Assembly: GCA_023391185.1 (NCBI GenBank) | Contig: JAEWBI010000037.1 | Coordinates: forward strand, 8,733 to 72,732 | Source of the DNA: Bacillota bacterium | GTDB taxonomy: Bacteria; Bacillota_I; Bacilli_A; RF39; UBA660 | Reading direction: 5' to 3' | DNA: 64,000 bases | In this document: positions 5,101 through 25,597 of the stretch, piece after piece | How positions within the stretch are numbered: position 1 is the stretch's first letter | How the letters are laid out: each line of letters starts with the position of its first letter | Translations under genes and position numbers: made by a program | Notes under the pieces: model-generated | The model's input: only the letters and a program-made list of their open reading frames with translations | The model's database searches: none | Told to the model about the DNA's origin: nothing

Positions 5101-6739
5101 TCTTCCTGCTCACTATAGGTGCTTAAAGTGCAAGTTGAGTATTTTTGATGATGAAAATAATAAACCGTTAGGAGCAGAGTATTCTTCAGGATTTGACTTG
5201 CCTGATAAAGTCTGTCCAAACTGTGGTGAAAGACTATTTAAAGATGGTCAGGATATGCCATTTGCTACATTTTTAGGATTTAATGCTGATAAGGTTCCAG
5301 ATATAGATCTTAACTTCTCTGATTTAAACCAAGCTGCAGCACATGAATACACAAAAGTATTGTTTGGTGAAGATAATGTTTATAGAGCTGGAACAATAGG
5401 AACTGTAGCTGATAAAACTGCCTATGGATTTGTAAAAGGATTTTATGAAGATCGTGGAATAGTAAAAAGAAGTGCAGAAATTGAAAGATTAGCAGCTGGA
5501 TGTACTGGTGTAAAAAGAACAACTGGTCAGCATCCTGGTGGTATAGTTGTTATACCAGGATATATGGATGTATTTGACTTTACCCCATATCAGTTTCCTG
5601 CTGATGATAGTACAGCAGCATGGAAAACTACACATTTTGATTATCATGCAATTGATCAAGATGTACTAAAACTTGATATATTAGGACATTCTGATCCAAC
5701 ACAACTTCGTATGATTCAAGATTTAACTGGTATAGATGTAACAAAGGTACCTTTAGATGATAAAGAGACAATGGCAATATTCTTATCACCTGAACCTTTG
5801 GGGGTAACAAGAGAACAAATAATGTGTGAAACTGGAACAATAGGAATACCAGAATTTGGAACGCCGTTTACAATAGGAATGCTTGTTGATACAAAACCTA
5901 AAACATTTTCAGAACTTATAAAAATTTCTGGACTTTCACATGGTACTGATGTATGGCTTGGAAATGCTCAAGAACTTATTAGAAATAATATTGTGCCTTT
6001 TAAAGAAGTTATCGGTTGTCGTGATGATATAATGGTTTATCTAATGTATAATGGCGTAAAACCTATTAAAGCTTTTAAAATAATGGAGTTTGTTCGTAAA
6101 GGTAAAGCAAGTAAAGAAGCAGATGCTTGGAAAGAACATGTTCAAACTATGCGTGAGGCAGGAATAGCAGAATGGTTTATTGATTCCTGTGCTAAAATAA
6201 AATACATGTTTCCAAAAGCCCATGCTGCTGCATATGTTATAAGTGCATTTAGAATAGCATATTTTAAAGTCCATTATCCAGCAGTTTATTATGCATCTTA
6301 TTTGACTTCTCGTATAGATGATTTTGATATTGATGTTATGATAAAAGGATATAATTCTATTAGAAATAAAATAATAGAAATTAATAACAAAGGATATGAT
6401 GCTACAAATAAAGAGAGTTCAATACTTGATACTCTTAAAATTGCTCTTGAAGCAACAGCTAGAGGAATTAAATTTGGTAAAATAGATATTATGAATAGTC
6501 ATTCTACTCATTTCTTAATCTCTGAAGATGGAAAAACTATTATTCCACCATTTAGAACACTAGATGGATTAGGAGATAATGTTGCTAATAAAATAGTAGA
6601 AGAAAGACAGATTAGACCTTTCATAAGTATTGAAGATTTCCAAAAGAGAGGAAAAGTATCGGGAACATTAATTGATAAAATGCGTACTATGGGCATATTA
6701 GATGGCATGGATGAATCAAGTCAGTTATCTTTATTTTAA
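2180..6739 (+). CDS. polC: DNA polymerase III alpha subunit, PolC type
   Basis: Full-length PolC architecture: PHP (ELHTHTKMSQMDG), inserted DEDDh exonuclease (FDVETTG...HNAKFD...HRADYDA), Zn-finger (CLKCK...CPNCG), GSRGSVGSS and KFDILGH-type polymerase core. ATG at 2180 follows RBS GAAGGTGA; the track's upstream TTG start is less likely. Confidence 0.97.
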   Translation: MHEKLKLLLEQINMPNEFYSFFKDGNLDKIAISKKDNNVNFFVTLDKILPIEIYVKFCNLVSNHFNMYEETNVIITAVNKEYDLLSDYYNYLIEEYSVDFPLLQMFSGIANKVENNILYLEVSNKAEEMKLTSIKDKLITDLIKIGYNDISIEININEEARNAILKQIEEEKEKEQMVLKEEAEKKNAIIKGYAFDGEAKNIGDLNYEANNVIIEAKIFGIETKETPKINIITLKVTDYTDSIFVKVFERDTDAYNKLVKSLKPGNWFKMRGRVQDDAYSKELVMMVNDIVSIKHEDGKKIVDDEIEKRVELHTHTKMSQMDGVVEEVELIKKAISWGHKGIAITDHNGCQAFPHAFSTVTEYNKKVEKPEDKFKVIYGTELTMVDDEVYTIIRGNDSKLDENIYVIFDVETTGFNAGLSDQMIEIGAVKMKDGEITERFDELINPGYPIDSEITEVTSITNAMLVGKPNEEEVVKRFKDFIGDLPLVAHNAKFDISMLEMAYYKYNLGVLNNPVIDTLEISRTMDRDYAKHSLSALVKRYAIPFDEAHHHRADYDAEGTGYIFCKMIKKMQSMGIQTLNDINKLYTKEEAHKFSREYHINILALNKVGLKNLFKLVSLANTTYLSKVPKIPRKVIEENRDGILIGSGCYRGEAFYVASTRTEEVLTDVIKFYDYVEVQPPEVYGHLVWGHDLNSDKDVKDCIKKIIKCTKEAGKIIIATGDVHHLSRDDKLYREIIVNQKVPGGGRHPLARVLDRNQKISSQHFRTTTEMLSDFSFLDNDLRKEIVIDNPNKILDMAEEIEVIIDTGGVPFSPIIDKSVETVTTLVFDKAKEWYGSPLPLNIEERIAKELYGDILYNCIKEELIEEEKLSELDLEAAVFNKVHEIILQGKDAVKDIVRKNIIKHDEEGLDEKSLEKKVNKSLGGIIGGGFDVIYLIAQKLVYHSNEDGYLVGSRGSVGSSFVATMMGITEVNPLPAHYRCLKCKLSIFDDENNKPLGAEYSSGFDLPDKVCPNCGERLFKDGQDMPFATFLGFNADKVPDIDLNFSDLNQAAAHEYTKVLFGEDNVYRAGTIGTVADKTAYGFVKGFYEDRGIVKRSAEIERLAAGCTGVKRTTGQHPGGIVVIPGYMDVFDFTPYQFPADDSTAAWKTTHFDYHAIDQDVLKLDILGHSDPTQLRMIQDLTGIDVTKVPLDDKETMAIFLSPEPLGVTREQIMCETGTIGIPEFGTPFTIGMLVDTKPKTFSELIKISGLSHGTDVWLGNAQELIRNNIVPFKEVIGCRDDIMVYLMYNGVKPIKAFKIMEFVRKGKASKEADAWKEHVQTMREAGIAEWFIDSCAKIKYMFPKAHAAAYVISAFRIAYFKVHYPAVYYASYLTSRIDDFDIDVMIKGYNSIRNKIIEINNKGYDATNKESSILDTLKIALEATARGIKFGKIDIMNSHSTHFLISEDGKTIIPPFRTLDGLGDNVANKIVEERQIRPFISIEDFQKRGKVSGTLIDKMRTMGILDGMDESSQLSLF

Positions 6740-17159: not shown

Positions 17160-18539
17160 ATGAATTGTAATAAATGTGGCACTCCAATTCTACCAGGTGA
17201 AAATTCTTGCCGTTTTTGTGGTACTGTTGGTGATTACTCTAAAAGAAGTCATGATGAAATAAAACCAGAAATAATAGATTTTACTACAGGTGATGATGAT
17301 GTAGTAATTATAGATGATGAACCAGAAAAGATAGAAATCATACCAGGTATTAAACCTGTTAGTACTCCAGTTGCTCCGGTAACACCAGTAGTAATAAGAA
17401 CTGAGCCAGTTGTTACTCCAATTAATGTTGTAACTCCTGAAATAAAAGAGGTTCCAATAACTAATATCAATATTGAACCTTCTGCTGTTGTACAAACTGC
17501 TGTTCCTGTTGTTCCAATTGTTGAAGCACCAGTTCAAATTCCAGTTGTTACACCTATCATTAGTGAACCAATTGAACCAACTGTAAAACAATCTCCAGTT
17601 GTTCCAATTATTTCAAAAATAGATAGTGAACCAGTTTCTGTAATTAAAAAAGAGGAGTTTGTAGTTCCAACAGTTACACCAGTAACTGAGATTATGGCTA
17701 TAGTAGAACCATCTACTAATGCAGTAGCACCAGTAGAACAGACTACAGTAGAAACAGCTGTTTCTACATCTACTCCAATAATAGTGACTGAGCCAACTTC
17801 TAAGGATACAAAAGAAGAGATAATAAAAGAAGTTGAAATTCCAGTAACTGATGAAAAAAAAGAAAATAAAGTAAAGAAATCTAGTCAAGGTCTTTTTAAT
17901 ATATTAACTTTCGTATTAATAGTATTATTACTTATTTCAGTAATAGTTAATTGTTTTCTATTAATGGGGGACGGTAAAGATAATAAAGAAATTGATGATA
18001 CTCCAGTTGTAAGTACTACTAATCAAACTGTATATTTTAGTGGTTATAAAGCAGAAGTTCCAAGTAACTGGATTACTGTTACTAATAAAGATGTAAGTTA
18101 TATTACTTTAATGGATAGTACTGAAGATTGGGCTATGACTTTAAATGTAACACCAAATACAAATGCGGGAGAAATTAGTAATAAAACAAGTGTAGATAAT
18201 ATTACAAAAGCATTTGGTACTAATAAGTATTTATTTACTAGTGATTATTCTAAAACAGTAGATGGAAAAGATTTTTACATATTTAAAGGTAAATACTATG
18301 ATTACAGTGTATATATAATAACTTTAGGATTAAATAACACAAATACTATTGTAGCCGATTTGAAATTCAAAGGTGAAGTAGATGATGCAGTTCTTTCTAA
18401 TGTACTTAGTTCTTTAACAACAGTAAGCACGAAAGACTTAACGACTTTTTATAAAAATGATTTTAACTTTGGTGATATATCATCACTAATAACTAGTAAT
18501 GTAAGCGTAGAAGATAGCGCGAATTTAGGAGGAAATTAA
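17160..18539 (+). CDS. zinc-ribbon / Pro-Val-rich linker / TM / extracellular-domain protein
   Basis: N-terminal CNKCGTPILPGENSCRFCG zinc ribbon. About 200 aa of P-V-T-rich low-complexity repeats, one TM (LFNILTFVLIVLLLISVIVNCFLL), then a roughly 190-aa C-terminal domain. Confidence 0.7.
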   Translation: MNCNKCGTPILPGENSCRFCGTVGDYSKRSHDEIKPEIIDFTTGDDDVVIIDDEPEKIEIIPGIKPVSTPVAPVTPVVIRTEPVVTPINVVTPEIKEVPITNINIEPSAVVQTAVPVVPIVEAPVQIPVVTPIISEPIEPTVKQSPVVPIISKIDSEPVSVIKKEEFVVPTVTPVTEIMAIVEPSTNAVAPVEQTTVETAVSTSTPIIVTEPTSKDTKEEIIKEVEIPVTDEKKENKVKKSSQGLFNILTFVLIVLLLISVIVNCFLLMGDGKDNKEIDDTPVVSTTNQTVYFSGYKAEVPSNWITVTNKDVSYITLMDSTEDWAMTLNVTPNTNAGEISNKTSVDNITKAFGTNKYLFTSDYSKTVDGKDFYIFKGKYYDYSVYIITLGLNNTNTIVADLKFKGEVDDAVLSNVLSSLTTVSTKDLTTFYKNDFNFGDISSLITSNVSVEDSANLGGN

Positions 18540-18555
18540 CAGTTTCCTTTTTTTT
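18529..18555 (+). terminator. intrinsic terminator after the zinc-ribbon protein gene
   Basis: AGGAAA-ttaacag-TTTCCT followed by a T8 run. Confidence 0.65.
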
Positions 18556-18573
18556 ATATTTTATTAAAAAGTA

Positions 18574-18602
18574 TTGACTTTTATTATCTTCTCCTTTATA
18601 AT
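18574..18602 (+). promoter_or_regulatory. sigma-A promoter of the T-box/tRNA/gat operon
   Basis: TTGACT (18574-18579), 17-nt spacer, TATAAT (18597-18602), immediately upstream of T-box Stem I. Confidence 0.65.
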
Positions 18603-18609
18603 TATGGAC

Positions 18610-18868
18610 ATAGGCGTTGAAGAAACTAGTAGTAATAATGACTGATTTAAGCGAGTTAGATATGGTGTGAGCTAACAATTAAAATTATTATGAAGAACAA
18701 TTTGGAGCTATCTATTTGAATAATATAGTAGGATAGATCGGTTGTAATCCGTTACCAAGTTACATGAGTGATTGGCATCTATTATTAAAAGGTGCACAAT
18801 AATTTGGGTGGTACCGCGGATACAACAGTAATTCGTCCCTTTGTGGATTTTTGAAGTACTGTTTTTTT
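18610..18868 (+). promoter_or_regulatory. T-box riboswitch leader 1, Asn specifier (AAC)
   Basis: Stem I with AGTA/GA K-turn-like base, AGCGAG bulge and GGTG distal loop. Specifier loop GAAGAACA (AAC at 18696-18698, then A). T-box AATTTGGGTGGTACCGCG at 18801-18818, CGTCCC 3' arm, terminator hairpin CAGTAATTC...GAAGTACTG plus T7. Confidence 0.85.
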
Positions 18869-18878
18869 ATTTAATTTT

Positions 18879-18954
18879 GCCTGATTAGCTCAGTTGGTAG
18901 AGCATCCGGCTGTTAACCGGCAGGTCGTAGGTCCGAGTCCTACATCAGGCGCCA
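18879..18954 (+). tRNA. tRNA-Asn(GUU)-like, 76 nt, CCA encoded, non-canonical G1-C72 / U27-C43 / C55
   Basis: Hand-folded cloverleaf: acceptor GCCTGAT/ATCAGGC, D-arm GCTC-AGTTGGTA-GAGC, anticodon arm TCCGG-CTGTTAA-CCGGC, variable AGGTC, T-arm GTAGG-TCCGAGT-CCTAC, discriminator G, CCA. Confidence 0.85.
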
Positions 18955-18969
18955 TTTATTATTTATAAG

Positions 18970-19204
18970 CTATGAATAAGAGAGTAATAATAATACTAGT
19001 AAAAGCGAGTTAGATATGGTGAAAGCTAACAACCAAGGTTATTATGAAAAACACTTAGGAGCTATTATACTGAAATAAAGTAAGTTTAATCGGTTTAACC
19101 CGTTATCAAGTTAGAGTGACTATAGAAAATTTCTATAGTAATTTGGGTGGTACCGCGGATACAACAGTAATTCGTCCCTATGGGGATAGATTACTGTTTT
19201 TTTT
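18970..19204 (+). promoter_or_regulatory. T-box riboswitch leader 2, Asn specifier (AAC)
   Basis: Same architecture as leader 1. Specifier loop GAAAAACA directly 5' of lower helix CTTA (pairs with TAAG); AAC at 19050-19052. T-box box at 19140-19157; terminator CAGTAAT...ATTACTG plus T8. 40-nt block identical to leader 1. Confidence 0.9.
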
Positions 19205-19228
19205 ATACATTAAAGGAGGAATAATATT

Positions 19229-19525
19229 ATGGCAAGATTTACTAAGGAAATGGTCGTAGATTATGCAGATAAGTTATTAATTGGTTTAACAGAAGAAGAA
19301 GTAACAATGGTATTAGATGAGTTTGAAATTATAGATAAGAATATTGATTTAATTAATGCAATACCTAATATTTCAAAAGTAGAGCCAATGACTCATTGTT
19401 TGGATAATTTTATATATGAATTAAGAGAAGATGAACCAGAGGAATCAGTAGATATCGATGAATTATTACAAAACTGTGATAGTTATTTAAATAGAGAAGT
19501 TAAAGTACCAAAGGTGGTGGAATAA
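19229..19525 (+). CDS. gatC: Asp-tRNA(Asn)/Glu-tRNA(Gln) amidotransferase subunit C
   Basis: 98 aa, RBS AAAGGAGG, typical GatC sequence (VDYADKLLIGLTEEEV...EPMTH), directly upstream of gatA/gatB. Confidence 0.9.
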   Translation: MARFTKEMVVDYADKLLIGLTEEEVTMVLDEFEIIDKNIDLINAIPNISKVEPMTHCLDNFIYELREDEPEESVDIDELLQNCDSYLNREVKVPKVVE

Positions 19526-19526
19526 C

Positions 19527-20984
19527 ATGGATTATATGAGAAAAAGTATTGAAGAAATTCATGAAGCATTAATTAAAAATGAAGTTTCGGTTCAAGATTT
19601 AATTAATGAATCAATAGAAAAATCACACTTAGTTCAAGAAAAATGTAATGCTTTTGTAACAATATTAGATGGAACTAAGGAAAATAAAGTGACTTCTAAT
19701 TTATTATCAGGTATTCCTTATGGGGTTAAAGATAATTATAGTACTAAAGGTGTATTAAGTACTGGATCTAGTAATACACTAAAAGATTACATTCCATTTT
19801 TTACAGCTACCGCTATAGAAAATTTAGAAAAAGCTGGAGCAGTTGCAGTTAATAAAACAGTTTTAGATGAGTTTGGTATGGGTGGTACAGGTACAACAGG
19901 GCATACTGGTATTGTAAGAAATCCATGGGACTTATCTAGAATGTGCGCAGGTTCTTCAGCAGGATCTGCAGCCGCAGTAGCAGCAGGTGTGTATCCATAT
20001 GCTACTGGTAGTGATACAGGAGACTCTATCCGTAAACCAGCTGCGTATTGTGGAATAGTTGGTTATAAACCAACTTATGGAATGATATCAAGATATGGAT
20101 TATTTGCTTTTGCGAGCAGTCTGGATCACTGTGGAGTTTTAACTAGAAGTGTTAAAGATGCTGCAATAGTTGTTGATAACATGAAGGGTATAGACAAAAA
20201 TGATATGACTAGTTGGGATTCAAGTAGTATAGAATTGTATAATTCAATTACAGGAAATGTTTCTGGCAAAAAAATGTGTTATATAAAAGAAATATGTGAT
20301 ATTAGTATGTTCCCAAATGCATCAGATGAATTAAAGGAACATTTAAGTAATTTCAACAAAGTTTTAGATAAATGCAAAGAACTTGGAATTGAAATAGAAG
20401 AGGTTAGCATAGATAGAACTCTTTTAAATGCTGTTCCTTCTGTTTATGTAGTTATTTCATGTGCAGAAGCAACCTCTAATATGTCTAATTTAACAGGTAT
20501 TATATTTGGGCCTAGAGGTGAAGGAGATAACTATATTGATAAGATGAAAAACTATAGAACCACAGGTTTTTCTCCATTAATAAAGAGAAGATTTGTAATA
20601 GGATCTTATGTTTTACAAGCTCAAAATAAAGATAGATATTTCCATAATGCTCAAAGAGTTAGAAGACTTTTAGTTGACGAATGGAATAAACTTTTTGATA
20701 AATATGATGCTGTTATTTTACCAGTAGGTAGTGGCCCAGCTAAACAGTTAGATGGATCAGAAGACATATTAGATAAAAATACAGCCATTTTAGAAGAACA
20801 CTTACAAGTAGGTAACTTTGGAGGATTCCCATCAATTACTATTCCAGATGGATTTATTAACAATCTGCCAGTAGGTGTTAACATTACTGGTAAATGCTAT
20901 GATGATGTCAATGTACTAAATCTAGCATATGCTTTAGAAAGTAAAATGGAGTATAAAAATCAAATAGCTAAGGAGGTAAAGTAA
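19527..20984 (+). CDS. gatA: amidotransferase subunit A
   Basis: Amidase signature (GIPYGVKDNY...AGSSAGSAAAVAAG...GSDTGDSIRKPAAYCGIVGYKPTYG); 485 aa. Confidence 0.95.
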   Translation: MDYMRKSIEEIHEALIKNEVSVQDLINESIEKSHLVQEKCNAFVTILDGTKENKVTSNLLSGIPYGVKDNYSTKGVLSTGSSNTLKDYIPFFTATAIENLEKAGAVAVNKTVLDEFGMGGTGTTGHTGIVRNPWDLSRMCAGSSAGSAAAVAAGVYPYATGSDTGDSIRKPAAYCGIVGYKPTYGMISRYGLFAFASSLDHCGVLTRSVKDAAIVVDNMKGIDKNDMTSWDSSSIELYNSITGNVSGKKMCYIKEICDISMFPNASDELKEHLSNFNKVLDKCKELGIEIEEVSIDRTLLNAVPSVYVVISCAEATSNMSNLTGIIFGPRGEGDNYIDKMKNYRTTGFSPLIKRRFVIGSYVLQAQNKDRYFHNAQRVRRLLVDEWNKLFDKYDAVILPVGSGPAKQLDGSEDILDKNTAILEEHLQVGNFGGFPSITIPDGFINNLPVGVNITGKCYDDVNVLNLAYALESKMEYKNQIAKEVK

Positions 20985-22441
20985 TGGATAAATATAGAGT
21001 ATTAATAGGACTTGAAATGCACTGTGAAATAAGTGAAACAAAGACAAAAGTTTTTTCAAGCGCTTTAAATGATTATAGTGATGTTCCAAACAGTAACATA
21101 AGACCAGTAGATATGGCTTTTCCTGGAACTTTACCTGTCTTAAATAAGGAAGCAGTAAAAAAATCATTAATGGCTAGTATGATTCTTGGTTGTAAACAAC
21201 CAGAATATATATTTTTTGAAAGAAAGAACTATTATTATCCAGATTTACCAAAGGGTTATCAGATTACTCAGGAAACTAAACCAGCACCAGTCGGAATATA
21301 TGGTGAGTTAAAATATGAGTGTGATGGTGAATATAAAATTGTAAGAATCAACAATATACATCTAGAGGAAGATGCTGCATCAACAGATCATTATTCAAGA
21401 TATTCAACAATCGATTATAATAGAGCAGGAGTACCTCTTCTTGAACTTGTTACTGAACCAGATTTTCAATCAGCAACTGAAGCAGTAGCATTTCTTGAAA
21501 CTATGAGAACTATATATCAATATACTGGTATTAGTGAAGCTGATAGTAGAAAAGGTCAATTAAGATGTGATGTAAACGTATCAATTATGGATATAGATAA
21601 AGATGAAAAAAATCCTGAAAACTGGGGAACAAAAGTTGAAATTAAAAACATTAATTCCCTTGGTGGCGTAAGAGATGCGATTAACTATGAAGTTGCTAGA
21701 CAAATAGAAGCAAAAGAAAACAATTCTTATGACAAGATTGAACAACAAACAAGAAGATGGGACGAAGCTACTATGACTACTGTATATATGAGAAGCAAAG
21801 TAGATGCTATTGACTATAAATATTTTGTTGAACCAAATATACCAAAATTTAAATTATCACAAAAATGGTTGGAAGATATTAGGGCTAATATACCTGTTCT
21901 AGCTGTTGAAAGAAAAGAAAAGTATATTAATGAATATGGTTTGTCAAATTATGATGCTACCATATTAGTTAAAGAAAAAGCAATTTCAGATTTTTATGAA
22001 GAAACTATTAAATTAGGTGCTGATCCTAAAGTAAGTTCAAACTGGATGACTACCATGGTTTTAGGTCATTTAAATAAAGCAGAACTTGAATTAAAGGATA
22101 TCTTTCTAACACCAGCTTATTTAGTGGATTTAATTAATTTAATAAATAGTGGAGAAATATCTTCAAAACAAAGTAAAGAAATATTCTATAAAATGTTAGA
22201 AGAAAAGAAAGAACCTAAAAAGCTTGTTAAAGAAATGGGAATGAAACAAATTGGTGATGAGTCTACATTAAGACCTATGATTATTTCAATTATTGAAGAA
22301 CACTTAGAATTAATTGAAGAATATAGAAAAGGTAGAAATGTGTTTGACTTCTTTGTTGGACAAGTAATGAAACAAACTCGTGGTCAAGCAAATCCAACTT
22401 TAACTGCGCAAATAATTAAAGAAGAAATAGATAAAAGATAG
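20984..22441 (+). CDS. gatB: amidotransferase subunit B
   Basis: VLIGLEMHCE..., RKNYYYPDLPKGYQITQ, IHLEEDA, DYNRAGVPLLELVTEP and the C-terminal YqeY-like tail. ATG overlaps the gatA stop (ATGA-type junction). Confidence 0.95.
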   Translation: MDKYRVLIGLEMHCEISETKTKVFSSALNDYSDVPNSNIRPVDMAFPGTLPVLNKEAVKKSLMASMILGCKQPEYIFFERKNYYYPDLPKGYQITQETKPAPVGIYGELKYECDGEYKIVRINNIHLEEDAASTDHYSRYSTIDYNRAGVPLLELVTEPDFQSATEAVAFLETMRTIYQYTGISEADSRKGQLRCDVNVSIMDIDKDEKNPENWGTKVEIKNINSLGGVRDAINYEVARQIEAKENNSYDKIEQQTRRWDEATMTTVYMRSKVDAIDYKYFVEPNIPKFKLSQKWLEDIRANIPVLAVERKEKYINEYGLSNYDATILVKEKAISDFYEETIKLGADPKVSSNWMTTMVLGHLNKAELELKDIFLTPAYLVDLINLINSGEISSKQSKEIFYKMLEEKKEPKKLVKEMGMKQIGDESTLRPMIISIIEEHLELIEEYRKGRNVFDFFVGQVMKQTRGQANPTLTAQIIKEEIDKR

Positions 22442-22450
22442 GTGATACAA

Positions 22451-23827
22451 ATGAAAGATTCTAAAGAATTATATAATACTTATGGTGATTTTATTGGAAA
22501 AGAAGTTACACTACAAGGGTGGATTAAAAATCATCGTAAACAAAAAGAAATGGGCTTCATCGAATTCAATGATGGAACATTTTTTAAGAGTGTTCAACTT
22601 ATCTATAATAGTAAATTAAGAAAATTTGAAGATATACAGAAATTACGAATTGGTAGTGCTATAACTGTTGTTGGGACTGTTATAGAATCACCTAGAGAAG
22701 AACAACCTTTTGAAATAGATGTTAAAGAAATTACTCTAGAAGGTGATTGTCCAGATGACTATCCAATTCAGCCAAAAAGACACACTAGAGAGTTTTTAAG
22801 AGAACAAGCTTATCTAAGACCTAGAACAAATTTATTTGGAGCAGTATTTAGAGTAAGAAGTATAGTAGCTATGGCTATTCATTCATATTTCCAAGAACGA
22901 GGATATGTTTATGTTCATGCACCATTAATTACAGGTAGTGATTGTGAAGGTGCGGGAGAAATGTTTCAAGTAACGACTATAGATGTTGATAACTTGAATG
23001 GTAAAGAAATAGATTATACAAAAGATTTCTTTGGTAAAAAAACTAGTCTTACTGTATCAGGGCAGCTTCAAGGTGAAGCATTTGCAATGGCATATAAAAA
23101 GATATATACATTTGGTCCAACTTTTAGAGCGGAAAATTCTAATACAAAAACACATGCTTCTGAATTTTGGATGATTGAACCAGAAATTGCTTTTTGTGAT
23201 TTAAATGGTTTAATGGATATAGAAGAAGATGTTTTAAAATATATAATAAAATATACTTTAGAACATGCTAAAGAAGAATTAGAATTTTTTGATAAGTTTG
23301 TAGAAACAGGTCTTATTAATAAGTTAGAAAAAGTAGTAAATTCTAAGGCTGCTAGAATAACTCACAAAGAAGCTATAAAGATATTATTAAAATCAGGCAA
23401 AGATTTTGAAAACAAACCTGCTTATGGTGAAGATCTTGCTACTGAACATGAAAAATATCTTACAGGAGAACATTTTAATAGTCCTGTATTTGTTTCTGAT
23501 TGGCCAAAAGATATAAAAGCATTTTATATGCGTATGAACGATGATAAAGAAACAGTTGCAGCTGTAGACTTATTGGTGCCAGGATCAGGAGAACTTATGG
23601 GTGGTTCTCAAAGAGAAGAAAGAATAGATTTAATGCTTGCTAGAATGAAACAACTCGGAATTGATTCTAGTGAAATGGATTGGTATTTAAATTTAAGGAA
23701 ATTTGGTGGCTGCAAGCACAGCGGATTTGGTATGGGATTTGAGCGCTTACTTATTTATATAACAGGTGTTGAAAATATTAGAGATGTTATACCTTTCCCA
23801 AGAACTCCAAAAAATTGTGAATTTTAA
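22451..23827 (+). CDS. asnS: asparagine--tRNA ligase
   Basis: Class IIb aaRS with FRAENSNTKTHASEFWMIEPEIAF and GGSQREER...GFGMGFERLL motifs characteristic of AsnS. ATG 22451 after RBS AGGTGA. Confidence 0.92.
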   Translation: MKDSKELYNTYGDFIGKEVTLQGWIKNHRKQKEMGFIEFNDGTFFKSVQLIYNSKLRKFEDIQKLRIGSAITVVGTVIESPREEQPFEIDVKEITLEGDCPDDYPIQPKRHTREFLREQAYLRPRTNLFGAVFRVRSIVAMAIHSYFQERGYVYVHAPLITGSDCEGAGEMFQVTTIDVDNLNGKEIDYTKDFFGKKTSLTVSGQLQGEAFAMAYKKIYTFGPTFRAENSNTKTHASEFWMIEPEIAFCDLNGLMDIEEDVLKYIIKYTLEHAKEELEFFDKFVETGLINKLEKVVNSKAARITHKEAIKILLKSGKDFENKPAYGEDLATEHEKYLTGEHFNSPVFVSDWPKDIKAFYMRMNDDKETVAAVDLLVPGSGELMGGSQREERIDLMLARMKQLGIDSSEMDWYLNLRKFGGCKHSGFGMGFERLLIYITGVENIRDVIPFPRTPKNCEF

Positions 23828-23838
23828 GAGGTGATAAA

Positions 23839-25581
23839 ATGAAAGGTAATAAATATAGAACAATCTACTGTGGTAAAGTTACCAAAGAAGATATTGGTAA
23901 AGTTATAAGAATTGCGGGCTTTGTTGAAAATATAAGAGACCATGGTGGTATTATATTTGTTGATATCAGAGATGAATCAGGAAGTATTCAAACAGTAAGC
24001 AATGATGACAAAATTTTTGATCATATTACGCGTGAATCTTCAATAACATTACTTGGTACGGTTAGACTTAGATCTGAAGATACAATAAATACAAGACTTG
24101 CCACAGGTGAGCTAGAATTATTAGTAACAGAACTTGAGGTATTAGGTAAAGCAAATAATGAACTTCCATTTGAAATAATGACTTCAAAAGAGGTTAAAGA
24201 AGATATAAGATTGAAATATAGATATTTAGATTTAAGAAATGAAAAAGTTCATGAAAATATAGTATTTAGATCTAAAGTGATATCATACTTAAGGGAAAAA
24301 ATGAGTAATATGGGATTTTTAGAAATACAAACTCCAATTTTAACTTGTTCTTCTCCAGAGGGTGCTAGAGATTATATAGTTCCCTCAAGAATATATCATG
24401 GAAAATTCTATGCTTTACCACAAGCACCACAAATGTTTAAACAATTACTTATGGTAAGTGGTTTTGATAGATATTTTCAAATAGCGCCTTGTTTTAGAGA
24501 TGAAGATGCTAGAGCAGACCGTGCTCCAGGCGAATTCTATCAATTAGATTTTGAAATGGCCTTTGCTGAAGCTGAAGATGTATATGCTGTAGCTGAAGAG
24601 GTTTTATATGATACATTTACTAAGTTTAGTAATAAAGAAGTTAGTAGTAAACCATTTAGAAGAATATCTTATGCAGAGTCAATGCTAAAATATGGAACAG
24701 ACAAACCAGATTTAAGAAATCCTTTAGAAATTATTGATTTAACTGAAGTATTTACTGATACAACATTTAAACCATTTGTAAATACTGCGGTAAGAGGTAT
24801 TGCAGTAGATGATATTGGAACTAAATCAAACTCCTGGTTTAATGAATTAGTTGACTATGCTAAGACACTTGGTATGCCAGGAATTGGTTATGTAACCCTA
24901 ATGGAAGATGGATCTTTAAAGGGGCCAATTGATAAGTTCTTATCTGAAGAAGAAAGAGACTTATTAATAAACAAAGCTAATCTAAAGACAAACAGCGTAT
25001 TATTTTTTATCGCTGATAAGAAAAAAGCTTCTACTTTAGCAGGTGCTATGAGAAGTGAAATTGGTAAAAGACTAGAATTAATTGATAATAATAAATTTGA
25101 GTTTTGTTTTATCGTAGATTTTCCAATGTATGAATGGGATGAAGAAGAAGATAAATATGTATTTACGCATAATCCTTTCTCAATGCCACAGGGTGGTATG
25201 GATGATCTATTAAATAAAAAACCTGAAGAAATTCTTGCATATCAATATGATATAGTATGTAATGGTGTTGAATTATCAAGTGGTGCAGTTAGAAACCATG
25301 ATTTAGAAATTATGGAAAAAGCCTTTGATATAGCTGGCTATTCAAAAGAGGAACTAGAAAGACGTTTTAAAGCATTATATACAGCATTTCATTATGGAGC
25401 TCCTCCACATGCTGGTATGGCTCCAGGTGTTGATAGAATGATTATGCTTCTAAAGGATGAAGAAAGTATCCGCGAAGTAATAGCCTTTCCAATGAACAGT
25501 AGTGCTCAAGATTTAATGATGGGTTCACCTAGCGATGTAACCGAACAACAATTAAGAGATGTACACATAAAGATAAGGTAA
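23839..25581 (+). CDS. aspS: aspartate--tRNA ligase (discriminating vs non-discriminating not decidable by eye)
   Basis: 580 aa, bacterial-type AspS with GAD insertion: PQMFKQLLMVSGFDRYFQIAPCFRDEDARADR, FYQLDFEMAF, GAVRNH, PPHAGMAPGVDR. Confidence 0.95.
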   Translation: MKGNKYRTIYCGKVTKEDIGKVIRIAGFVENIRDHGGIIFVDIRDESGSIQTVSNDDKIFDHITRESSITLLGTVRLRSEDTINTRLATGELELLVTELEVLGKANNELPFEIMTSKEVKEDIRLKYRYLDLRNEKVHENIVFRSKVISYLREKMSNMGFLEIQTPILTCSSPEGARDYIVPSRIYHGKFYALPQAPQMFKQLLMVSGFDRYFQIAPCFRDEDARADRAPGEFYQLDFEMAFAEAEDVYAVAEEVLYDTFTKFSNKEVSSKPFRRISYAESMLKYGTDKPDLRNPLEIIDLTEVFTDTTFKPFVNTAVRGIAVDDIGTKSNSWFNELVDYAKTLGMPGIGYVTLMEDGSLKGPIDKFLSEEERDLLINKANLKTNSVLFFIADKKKASTLAGAMRSEIGKRLELIDNNKFEFCFIVDFPMYEWDEEEDKYVFTHNPFSMPQGGMDDLLNKKPEEILAYQYDIVCNGVELSSGAVRNHDLEIMEKAFDIAGYSKEELERRFKALYTAFHYGAPPHAGMAPGVDRMIMLLKDEESIREVIAFPMNSSAQDLMMGSPSDVTEQQLRDVHIKIR

Positions 25582-25597
25582 CCCTTATCTTTTCTTT
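25571..25597 (+). terminator. intrinsic terminator of the gat-asnS-aspS operon
   Basis: AGATAAGG-taac-CCTTATCT followed by a T-rich run; overlaps the aspS stop. Confidence 0.6.

Follow-up and report, generated by a model that had tools for sequence, protein, structure and literature searches.

T-boxes are sensors of tRNA charging whose accepted targets are genes for aminoacyl-tRNA synthetases, for the biosynthesis of amino acids, and for transporters, and tRNA genes are usually viewed as controlled by growth rate only. Here, we describe a locus in which a T-box leader stands directly upstream of the gene for its own ligand. The locus lies in a 64,000-nt stretch of contig JAEWBI010000037.1 from a Bacillota bacterium (assembly GCA_023391185.1), which we refer to in its entirety as the window, and consists of a promoter, an asparagine (Asn) T-box leader, a tRNA-Asn(GUU) gene, a second Asn T-box leader, and the genes gatCAB, asnS, and aspS. 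Full-text searches of literature open without subscription returned no account of a tRNA gene under T-box control, which agrees with a prior sequence-only reading of the window that was aware of none. Likewise, no tRNA-gene cargo was found in the portions of the Wels 2008 T-box survey and of the TBDB paper that are reached by targeted term searches.

Several described systems share part of this arrangement. An Asn-specific "NT-box" with overlapping GAA/AAC reportedly controls aspS-gatCAB in Clostridium acetobutylicum (Saad et al., J Biol Chem 2012 and PNAS 2013). The window resembles that operon in that a T-box with an AAC specifier is found upstream of gatCAB and aspS and in that the specifier loop of its first leader, GAAGAACA, holds overlapping GAA and AAC. 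Unlike the C. acetobutylicum operon, which reportedly has one leader and no tRNA gene, the window has the ligand gene first and then a second leader. Since asnS is within the window operon, a direct route of Asn charging is encoded too. Dual specificity is unsupported as a family trait among relatives of the window. Glu/Asn specificity of leader 1 was considered and not taken up as a feature of the family, as the specifier columns, read from a MAFFT leader alignment and from Rfam alignments, show a variable position ahead of AAC (U in most cases, A or G in some); the loop in relatives is mostly GAAUAACA, and a GAA that overlaps AAC is not kept across the leader alignment.

Tandem T-boxes are also known, e.g., those of the Bacillus subtilis thrZ and trp operons. 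The window is similar in having two complete leaders of the same specificity in series, which should sharpen the distal response. Unlike the known tandems, in which nothing functional is known to lie between the leaders, those of the window are separated by a 76-nt tRNA (or, in another assembly of the organism, L086, by a three-copy array), and the two gates have different outputs, with tRNA after one and enzymes after two. Cotranscripts of tRNA and protein genes, such as Escherichia coli thrU-tyrU-glyT-thrT-tufB, are a further precedent; there, as predicted for the window, tRNA is cut from a transcript that also bears the mRNA of a translation factor or enzyme, but operons of this type are not known to have a riboswitch that senses the charging of the encoded tRNA. 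The small RNAs controlled by B12 riboswitches in Listeria and Enterococcus are similar to the window in that the riboswitch cargo is RNA. However, the B12 systems respond to a small molecule and have a regulatory RNA as their cargo, whereas in the window the cargo is the ligand itself, which would close an all-RNA loop. Lastly, the transamidosome is a ribonucleoprotein of tRNA-Asn, non-discriminating AspRS, and GatCAB (PMC2811023). The window operon, as far as its genes can be read, encodes such RNA and protein parts together; it differs from the transamidosome in that its tRNA-Asn carries G1-C72, not U1-A72, and in that AsnRS is also encoded.

Compared with these systems, what appears to be new is a class of T-box cargo and a putative autoregulatory topology, to which the clade of the window adds a further gate, placed after the tRNA and ahead of the enzymes. 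We consider it probable that the promoter, Asn T-box 1, the tRNA-Asn(GUU) gene or genes, Asn T-box 2, gatCAB-asnS-aspS, and a terminator form one unit under T-box gating. Which parts make up this unit, how they are ordered and spaced, how far they are conserved, and how strictly specifiers match their cargo across lineages are all direct observations and are presented first.

An Rfam search revealed exactly three RNA elements in the 64-kb window, namely a T-box leader, a tRNA, and a second T-box leader. Leader 1 spans 18608..18868 on the + strand and matches Rfam RF00230 at 18608-18843 over the whole model (positions 1-219 of 219) with 119.1 bits and E=9e-26. The sequence-only reading had called it a complete T-box, with the proviso that a covariance model might find it degenerate; at 119 bits it exceeds the gathering score of 93 bits, and the features named in that reading were placed to within 1-2 nt. 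AAC occupies 18696-18698 within the specifier loop GAAGAACA (18692-18699); the T-box core spans 18801-18818, and the terminator hairpin, which holds an internal U5, spans 18824-18863. The predicted run of seven T is present at 18862-18868, although it ends one base later than the 18867 first given. Leader 2 (18963..19204, + strand) matches the same model at 18963-19182, again over positions 1-219 of 219, with 137.4 bits. Its specifier AAC is at 19050-19052, its terminator hairpin at 19163-19198, and both its core (19140-19157) and its T8 run (19197-19204) are where they had been read.

Both leaders have AAC followed by a purine, A, at the specifier position of the model, which fits a GUU anticodon. 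The T-box bulge, UGGU, is pairable with G73-C-C-A of the adjacent tRNA, with a U-G wobble at the discriminator; elsewhere the bulge is UGGC in L073, and in phenylalanine (Phe) leaders UGGU faces A73. In both leaders the 3' strand of the antiterminator, UUCGUCCC, doubles as the 5' strand of the terminator such that the two folds are mutually exclusive. From these intact T-box features, tRNA-dependent antitermination is predicted for both leaders. The leaders share an identical block that covers the T-box and antiterminator and had been given as 40 nt; it is 41 nt long (18800-18840 = 19139-19179). Overall identity between the leaders is ∼70%, consistent with the earlier view of them as duplicates.

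Between the leaders lies the tRNA-Asn(GUU) gene, 76 nt long with an encoded CCA, at 18879..18954 on the + strand (ARAGORN; Rfam 18879-18951, 68.4 bits). It is the sole tRNA that ARAGORN finds in the window and is the tRNA, anticodon GTT, that the sequence-only reading had placed there, except that the gap to the T-run of leader 1 is 10 nt rather than 11. The gap from its CCA to the match of leader 2 is 8 nt. The AsnRS identity set consists of the GUU anticodon and G73, and the window tRNA, a cloverleaf, has both.

The same organism is represented in other assemblies, as a GatC identical to that of the window occurs on 11 metagenome contigs. (Loci L083-L086 denote other assemblies of the window organism, L001-L082 the loci of the genome scan below, and WIN the window.) One tRNA copy is present between the same two leaders in L083 and L084, three tandem copies in L086, and at least three, across a gap of N, in L085. 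The array in L086 has an 84-nt period and comprises two isodecoders, distinguished in their acceptor stems by three compensated pairs. That the window has one copy may be due to a collapsed 84-nt repeat or a strain difference, and the architecture is unchanged by this question. In three other species, with GatC identities to the window of 98% (L064), 97% (L021), and 81% (L066), the order T-box, tRNA-Asn, T-box, gatC is kept. Their leaders are all full-length Rfam matches of 117-138 bits. In a neighbor-joining tree of the four species, T1 leaders group with T1 and T2 leaders with T2. This separate clustering, together with the ∼70% identity, indicates that the duplication predates these species and that both copies have been retained.

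The arrangement was sought in one genome per species across 185,579 species as a T-box core with an TAGCTCAG...AGAGC D-arm 55-85 nt downstream of it; the scan patterns reach only tRNAs with an TAGCTCAG D-arm or a GTTCRAWTC T-loop. Such a scan for T-box terminators followed by tRNA genes had been proposed in the earlier reading, and it yielded 82 loci, of which 55 are Asn, five are Phe, and 22 are chance matches. Each Asn locus consists of an Asn T-box and then one to six tandem tRNA-Asn(GUU) genes (the tRNA is cut by the locus end in 4/55, and counts for arrays that reach the locus end are minima). The Asn loci come from gut and environmental metagenome-assembled genomes (MAGs) labeled Bacilli, Tenericutes, Erysipelotrichaceae, Candidatus Coprosoma, Firmicutes, or Clostridia. 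An Rfam T-box was found in all 13 Asn loci tested, full length in 12 and cut by the contig end in L026, and AAC occupies the specifier column of every aligned Asn leader. In most species two to six tRNA-Asn copies are present, and since closed long-read MAG chromosomes (L031, L050, and L063) carry four copies each, the arrays are not short-read artefacts. The distance from the T-run to the first tRNA has a median of 8 nt and a range of 0-31 nt in 52 Asn loci, which leaves no room for a promoter between terminator and tRNA; spacers within arrays are 3-10 nt.

In ∼50 other species, a single T-box before the tRNA array is the only T-box of the whole operon, and wherever an Asn locus is long enough, gatCAB-aspS or gatCAB-asnS follows downstream. 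There are two exceptions. L036 (1-560) consists of a promoter, an Asn T-box, tRNA-Asn, tRNA-Glu(UUC), and a terminator, so that a non-cognate tRNA is also cargo. In L057 (4300-5600, T-box on the + strand), the T-box and three tRNA-Asn genes are followed by a terminator and then by a pgi-like (glucose-6-phosphate-isomerase-like) gene ahead of gatCAB, an insertion that is predicted to uncouple the enzymes from the T-box. In most species (L031, 4086-4330, and about 35 other loci) the leader starts ∼30 nt after a tRNA-Ile(GAU)-tRNA-Glu(UUC) pair. No good promoter was found between this pair and the leader, and in L031 the sole good promoter precedes tRNA-Ile; in this context, the T-box appears to be an internal attenuator within a tRNA operon.

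T-box-tRNA units are also found outside the Asn family. Five Paenibacillus loci have a Phe T-box and then one to six tRNA-Phe(GAA) genes, all five confirmed with Rfam, and UUC is in the specifier column of all Phe leaders. The locus of Paenibacillus nitricinens (L045, 2749-3690) is a complete unit devoid of protein genes, in which a TTGACT...TACAAT promoter is followed by a Phe T-box, six tRNA-Phe genes, and a terminator. The remaining Paenibacillus Phe loci, L024, L032, L041, and L068, have this layout as well, likewise without a protein gene; tRNAs in the arrays are mostly without encoded CCA, and in L024 a second full-length T-box (6085-6346, minus strand, 104.9 bits) is divergent beside the Phe unit. 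A further candidate, L035, was called a Phe T-box by pattern and was discarded since Rfam finds no T-box there. A metagenome scan, built to skip the Asn T-loops of this clade, gave 29 matches, of which L098, L101, and L115 are relevant; the other 26 were set aside, having no tRNA after the core. Most of these are ordinary T-boxes that happen to have a T-loop-like 9-mer downstream, and a few are chance matches in GC-rich sequence. L098 (860-1400) is again a unit of promoter, Phe T-box, two tRNA-Phe genes, and terminator with no protein gene. In L115 (560-990), a T-box of 109.8 bits with specifier UAC is directly followed by tRNA-Tyr(GUA). L101 (1-330) likewise has a Tyr T-box (UAC) and directly after it tRNA-Tyr(GUA); the tRNA-Tyr genes of both loci are rather low-scoring, at 51-55 bits. 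An open reading frame of uncertain family lies downstream in L115.

The match between specifier and cargo is without exception, that is AAC with Asn, UUC with Phe, and UAC with Tyr, and the comparison points to T-boxes followed by cognate tRNA genes for all three amino acids in unrelated leader families. The non-Bacillota matches served as controls. Their number, 22, agrees with an estimate of ∼20-27 chance matches to the 11-base core, and they involve Arg, Thr, Val, Lys, Met, His, and other tRNAs; none of the 20 tested, of the 22, has a T-box. Together, ∼60 species loci, cognate cargo, and control matches without a T-box argue that a cognate tRNA gene as T-box cargo is a recurrent, selected arrangement. 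The comparison strongly supports the earlier structural proposal of one promoter with a tRNA as the direct cargo of an Asn T-box, followed by a duplicate T-box and the enzyme genes, while the single tRNA gene assumed in that proposal may be an array.

The remainder of the unit in the window was examined next to these RNA elements. The promoter, TTGACT-17-TATAAT at 18574..18602 (+ strand), was borne out as the top match of the region with 11/12 consensus positions. L064 and L066 have TTGAC...TATAAT in the corresponding position; the -10 is kept in L021, whose -35 falls outside the extracted stretch. Upstream of the promoter, 3' of a gene for 459 amino acids, is a weak terminator-like hairpin with a T8 run (18527..18556, + strand; -8.1 kcal/mol, z = -2.0), which would insulate the operon from transcription arriving from upstream. 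Downstream of leader 2, a ribosome-binding site, AAGGAGG at 19213-19219, precedes gatC as had been read, and NCBIfam profiles confirm the order gatCAB-asnS-aspS, all on the + strand. The gatC product (19229..19525) scores 45.5 bits with TIGR00135, slightly under the cut-off of 47.1, and a protein identical to it has a weak Pfam GatC match. It is followed by gatA (19527..20984; TIGR00132, E=4e-129, 431 bits, under the equivalog cut-off of 481), gatB (20984..22441; NF004012, 560 bits, over its cut-off), asnS, encoding asparagine--tRNA ligase (22442..23827; NF003037, 643.7 bits), and aspS, encoding a bacterial-type aspartate--tRNA ligase (23839..25581; NF001750, 760.9 bits). With GatC and GatA below their NCBIfam equivalog cut-offs and GatB above, the window GatCAB is a somewhat divergent subtype. 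The operon ends with a terminator-like hairpin at the aspS stop codon (25569..25592, + strand), found by pattern scan, with a fold of -15.4 kcal/mol (z = -4.9). The window has 28.4% G+C, and Asn makes up 6.7% of residues in long open reading frames, 85% of it as AAU codons. As one anticodon reads all Asn codons of the window and Asn use is high, a heavy and adjustable demand for tRNA-Asn is plausible.

The tRNA-Asn genes linked to T-boxes have the hallmarks of functional tRNAs. All of them (window and L001-L082) have G1-C72, G73, and encoded CCA. Their acceptor stems covary across loci (GCCTGAT/ATCAGGC, GCTCAAT/ATTGAGC, GCCCAAT/ATTGGGC, and others), which indicates that the tRNAs are functional. 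Some array copies, e.g., L054 4959-5034, have an acceptor stem made of the 5' half of one isodecoder and the 3' half of another; these mixed stems carry one or two mismatches and reflect either recombination within the tandem array or chimeric assembly. The T-loop of the window tRNA, UCCGAGU at 18932-18938, has C55 in place of the near-universal U55 (pseudouridine 55). All 27 T-box-linked copies in 13 loci (the window, L002, L021, L059, L064, L070, L074, L075, L081, and L083-L086) have C55; elsewhere, UUCGAGU is found in 104 copies and UUCGAGC in seven.

The first base pair raises a question of identity toward GatCAB. The main identity element of tRNA-Asn for bacterial GatCAB is U1-A72, accompanied by a D-loop without nucleotide 20A, and a G1-C72 mutant of Neisseria meningitidis tRNA-Asn is amidated about 100-fold more poorly (PMC1635274). 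The T-box-linked tRNA-Asn lacks U1-A72, and its D-loop, 8 nt without 20A, is as the GatCAB rule expects. In Staphylococcus aureus GatB, discrimination against G1-C72 is enforced by a 3-10 turn (K183-M184-E185-E186), and archaeal GatCAB, which is without this turn, accepts G1-C72 (PMC2811023). When aligned to 2df4_B and 3h0l_B (residues ∼185-215), window GatB has D-S-R-K at the position of the turn, with no gap there. The Met that anchors the turn is replaced by Ser in 29/29 GatBs of the window type, which also have a 5-residue insertion shortly after the turn; in GatBs of a distant type (L039, L059, and L073), Thr, Leu, or Val is at this position. The altered turn fits a putatively relaxed rule for the first pair. 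In the earlier suggestion that the operon encodes enzymes that charge or amidate its tRNA, the amidation step is uncertain, as a tRNA with G1-C72 is, by published enzymology, a poor substrate for standard bacterial GatCAB.

A number of observations weigh against the one-unit reading or complicate it. The tRNA copy number in the organism of the window is uncertain, being one or three depending on the assembly. The G1-C72 pair conflicts with the GatCAB identity rule, so that a functional link from the tRNA to the adjacent GatCAB is putative. A third concern is that the tRNA gene or genes, leader 2, or both may have a weak promoter of their own, in which case the tRNA would be constitutive and only the juxtaposition unusual. 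At 28% G+C, -10-like hexamers are frequent in the region; for example, TATTAT at 18957-18962 would have transcription begin close to the base of leader 2's Stem I, and a 9/12 match at 18962-18991 would have it begin inside that stem, so a weak internal promoter near the tRNA or leader 2 may exist. Nevertheless, we regard this explanation as unlikely. The consensus pattern scan identified no convincing promoter between terminator 1 and leader 2, the 9/12 match being the sole one, and promoter-like matches in the whole region are at background (13 versus 9.9 ± 3.6 in shuffles), in line with the original failure to find a plausible promoter there. Any -35 would land in the GC-rich tRNA or in the terminator. 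Neither the gap from T-run to tRNA nor that from tRNA to leader 2 contains a conserved -35/-10 pair, and the spacers are not conserved among the window, L064, L021, and L066. The short distance from T-run to tRNA in the 52 Asn loci also argues against a promoter, and strict matching of specifier to cargo in three amino-acid classes would be hard to explain without coupling.

The fourth concern is the strength of the first gate. Terminator 1 of the window folds to only about -8.1 kcal/mol, against -15.5 kcal/mol (z = -4.8) for terminator 2, and leader 1 may for this reason regulate little. The corresponding values in L021 are -7.5 and -12.2 kcal/mol, and T1 is weaker than T2 wherever both hairpins were folded whole (window and L021); L064 and L066 have the same T1 hairpin sequence as the window, with T2 hairpins of -16.5 and -12.5 kcal/mol. 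Leader 1 could, thus, be a leaky and largely decorative duplicate, with the tRNA effectively constitutive and only leader 2 regulatory. This is improbable in our view because leader 1 orthologues are full length at 117-132 bits in four species despite diverged flanking spacers and because the 41-nt T-box/antiterminator block is identical in both leaders. Moreover, the ∼50 species with one T-box rely on it, ahead of the tRNA array, for the whole operon, and T-box units with tRNA genes alone exist. Least credible of all is that the tRNA is a processing or insulating module, whose cleavage by RNase P detaches leader 1 and sets the 5' end of the leader 2/gatC mRNA with no selected effect on the tRNA pool: tRNAs embedded in mRNAs are known processing punctuation and the leader in most relatives directly follows tRNA-Ile and tRNA-Glu, a tRNA-processing context, but copy number is raised to two to six in most species, the tRNAs are intact, covary, and possess the AsnRS identity set, cognate cargo is found in every case where a mere signal could be any tRNA, and units with tRNA genes alone carry no mRNA to process.

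Under the preferred reading of one T-box-gated unit, a single start site, dependence on read-through, processing of the transcript, and a physiological loop would be expected, and we propose the following sequence of events. Polymerase would start just downstream of the -10, at 18602 or beyond, and transcribe leader 1. Uncharged tRNA-Asn would pair with both the AAC specifier and the UGGU bulge and stabilize the antiterminator, allowing read-through of the weak terminator 1 into the tRNA gene or genes. The tRNA would then be excised, with RNase P acting at the 5' end and trimming to the encoded CCA at the 3' end. The same polymerase would next face leader 2 and its much stronger terminator before reaching the enzyme genes. 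A single leaky gate would, therefore, stand ahead of the tRNA, and two gates ahead of the enzymes for charging and amidation. As leader 1 has its own T-box ligand for cargo and newly transcribed tRNA is not yet charged, read-through would act as positive feedback on the two leaders until charging was restored through the induction of AsnRS, AspRS, and GatCAB. A leaky terminator 1 would avert a dead state in which no tRNA is available to open the switch. We also considered whether the nascent, still tethered tRNA could open leader 2 in cis. What the discriminator domain of a T-box recognizes is a free tRNA 3' end; the 3' extension of a tethered tRNA should resemble a charged tRNA, which makes action in cis unlikely.

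A broader proposal is offered more tentatively, as possible but not probable. In this proposal, the T-box-gated genes would be the only tRNA-Asn genes of the cell, so that a riboswitch would set the entire pool of an essential tRNA that is also its ligand, in an autoregulatory loop made of RNA alone whose first gate is leaky; the tRNA (with G1-C72 and, in some lineages, C55) and the GatCAB with its altered GatB turn would have coevolved away from the U1-A72 rule as a self-contained "transamidosome cassette" with its own RNA component; and the Phe and Tyr units would make control of the ligand gene a general, overlooked class of T-box regulon.

A T-box that gates the gene of its own ligand would constitute a new class of T-box output and a positive-feedback circuit, with the enzymes placed behind a second gate. 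By this means, the abundance of bacterial tRNA could follow charging status, one species of tRNA at a time. The presence of a G1-C72 tRNA-Asn beside gatCAB questions the generality of the bacterial U1-A72 rule. The arrangement is common in AT-rich gut Bacillota with small genomes and Asn-rich proteomes, and it is also found in culturable Paenibacillus.

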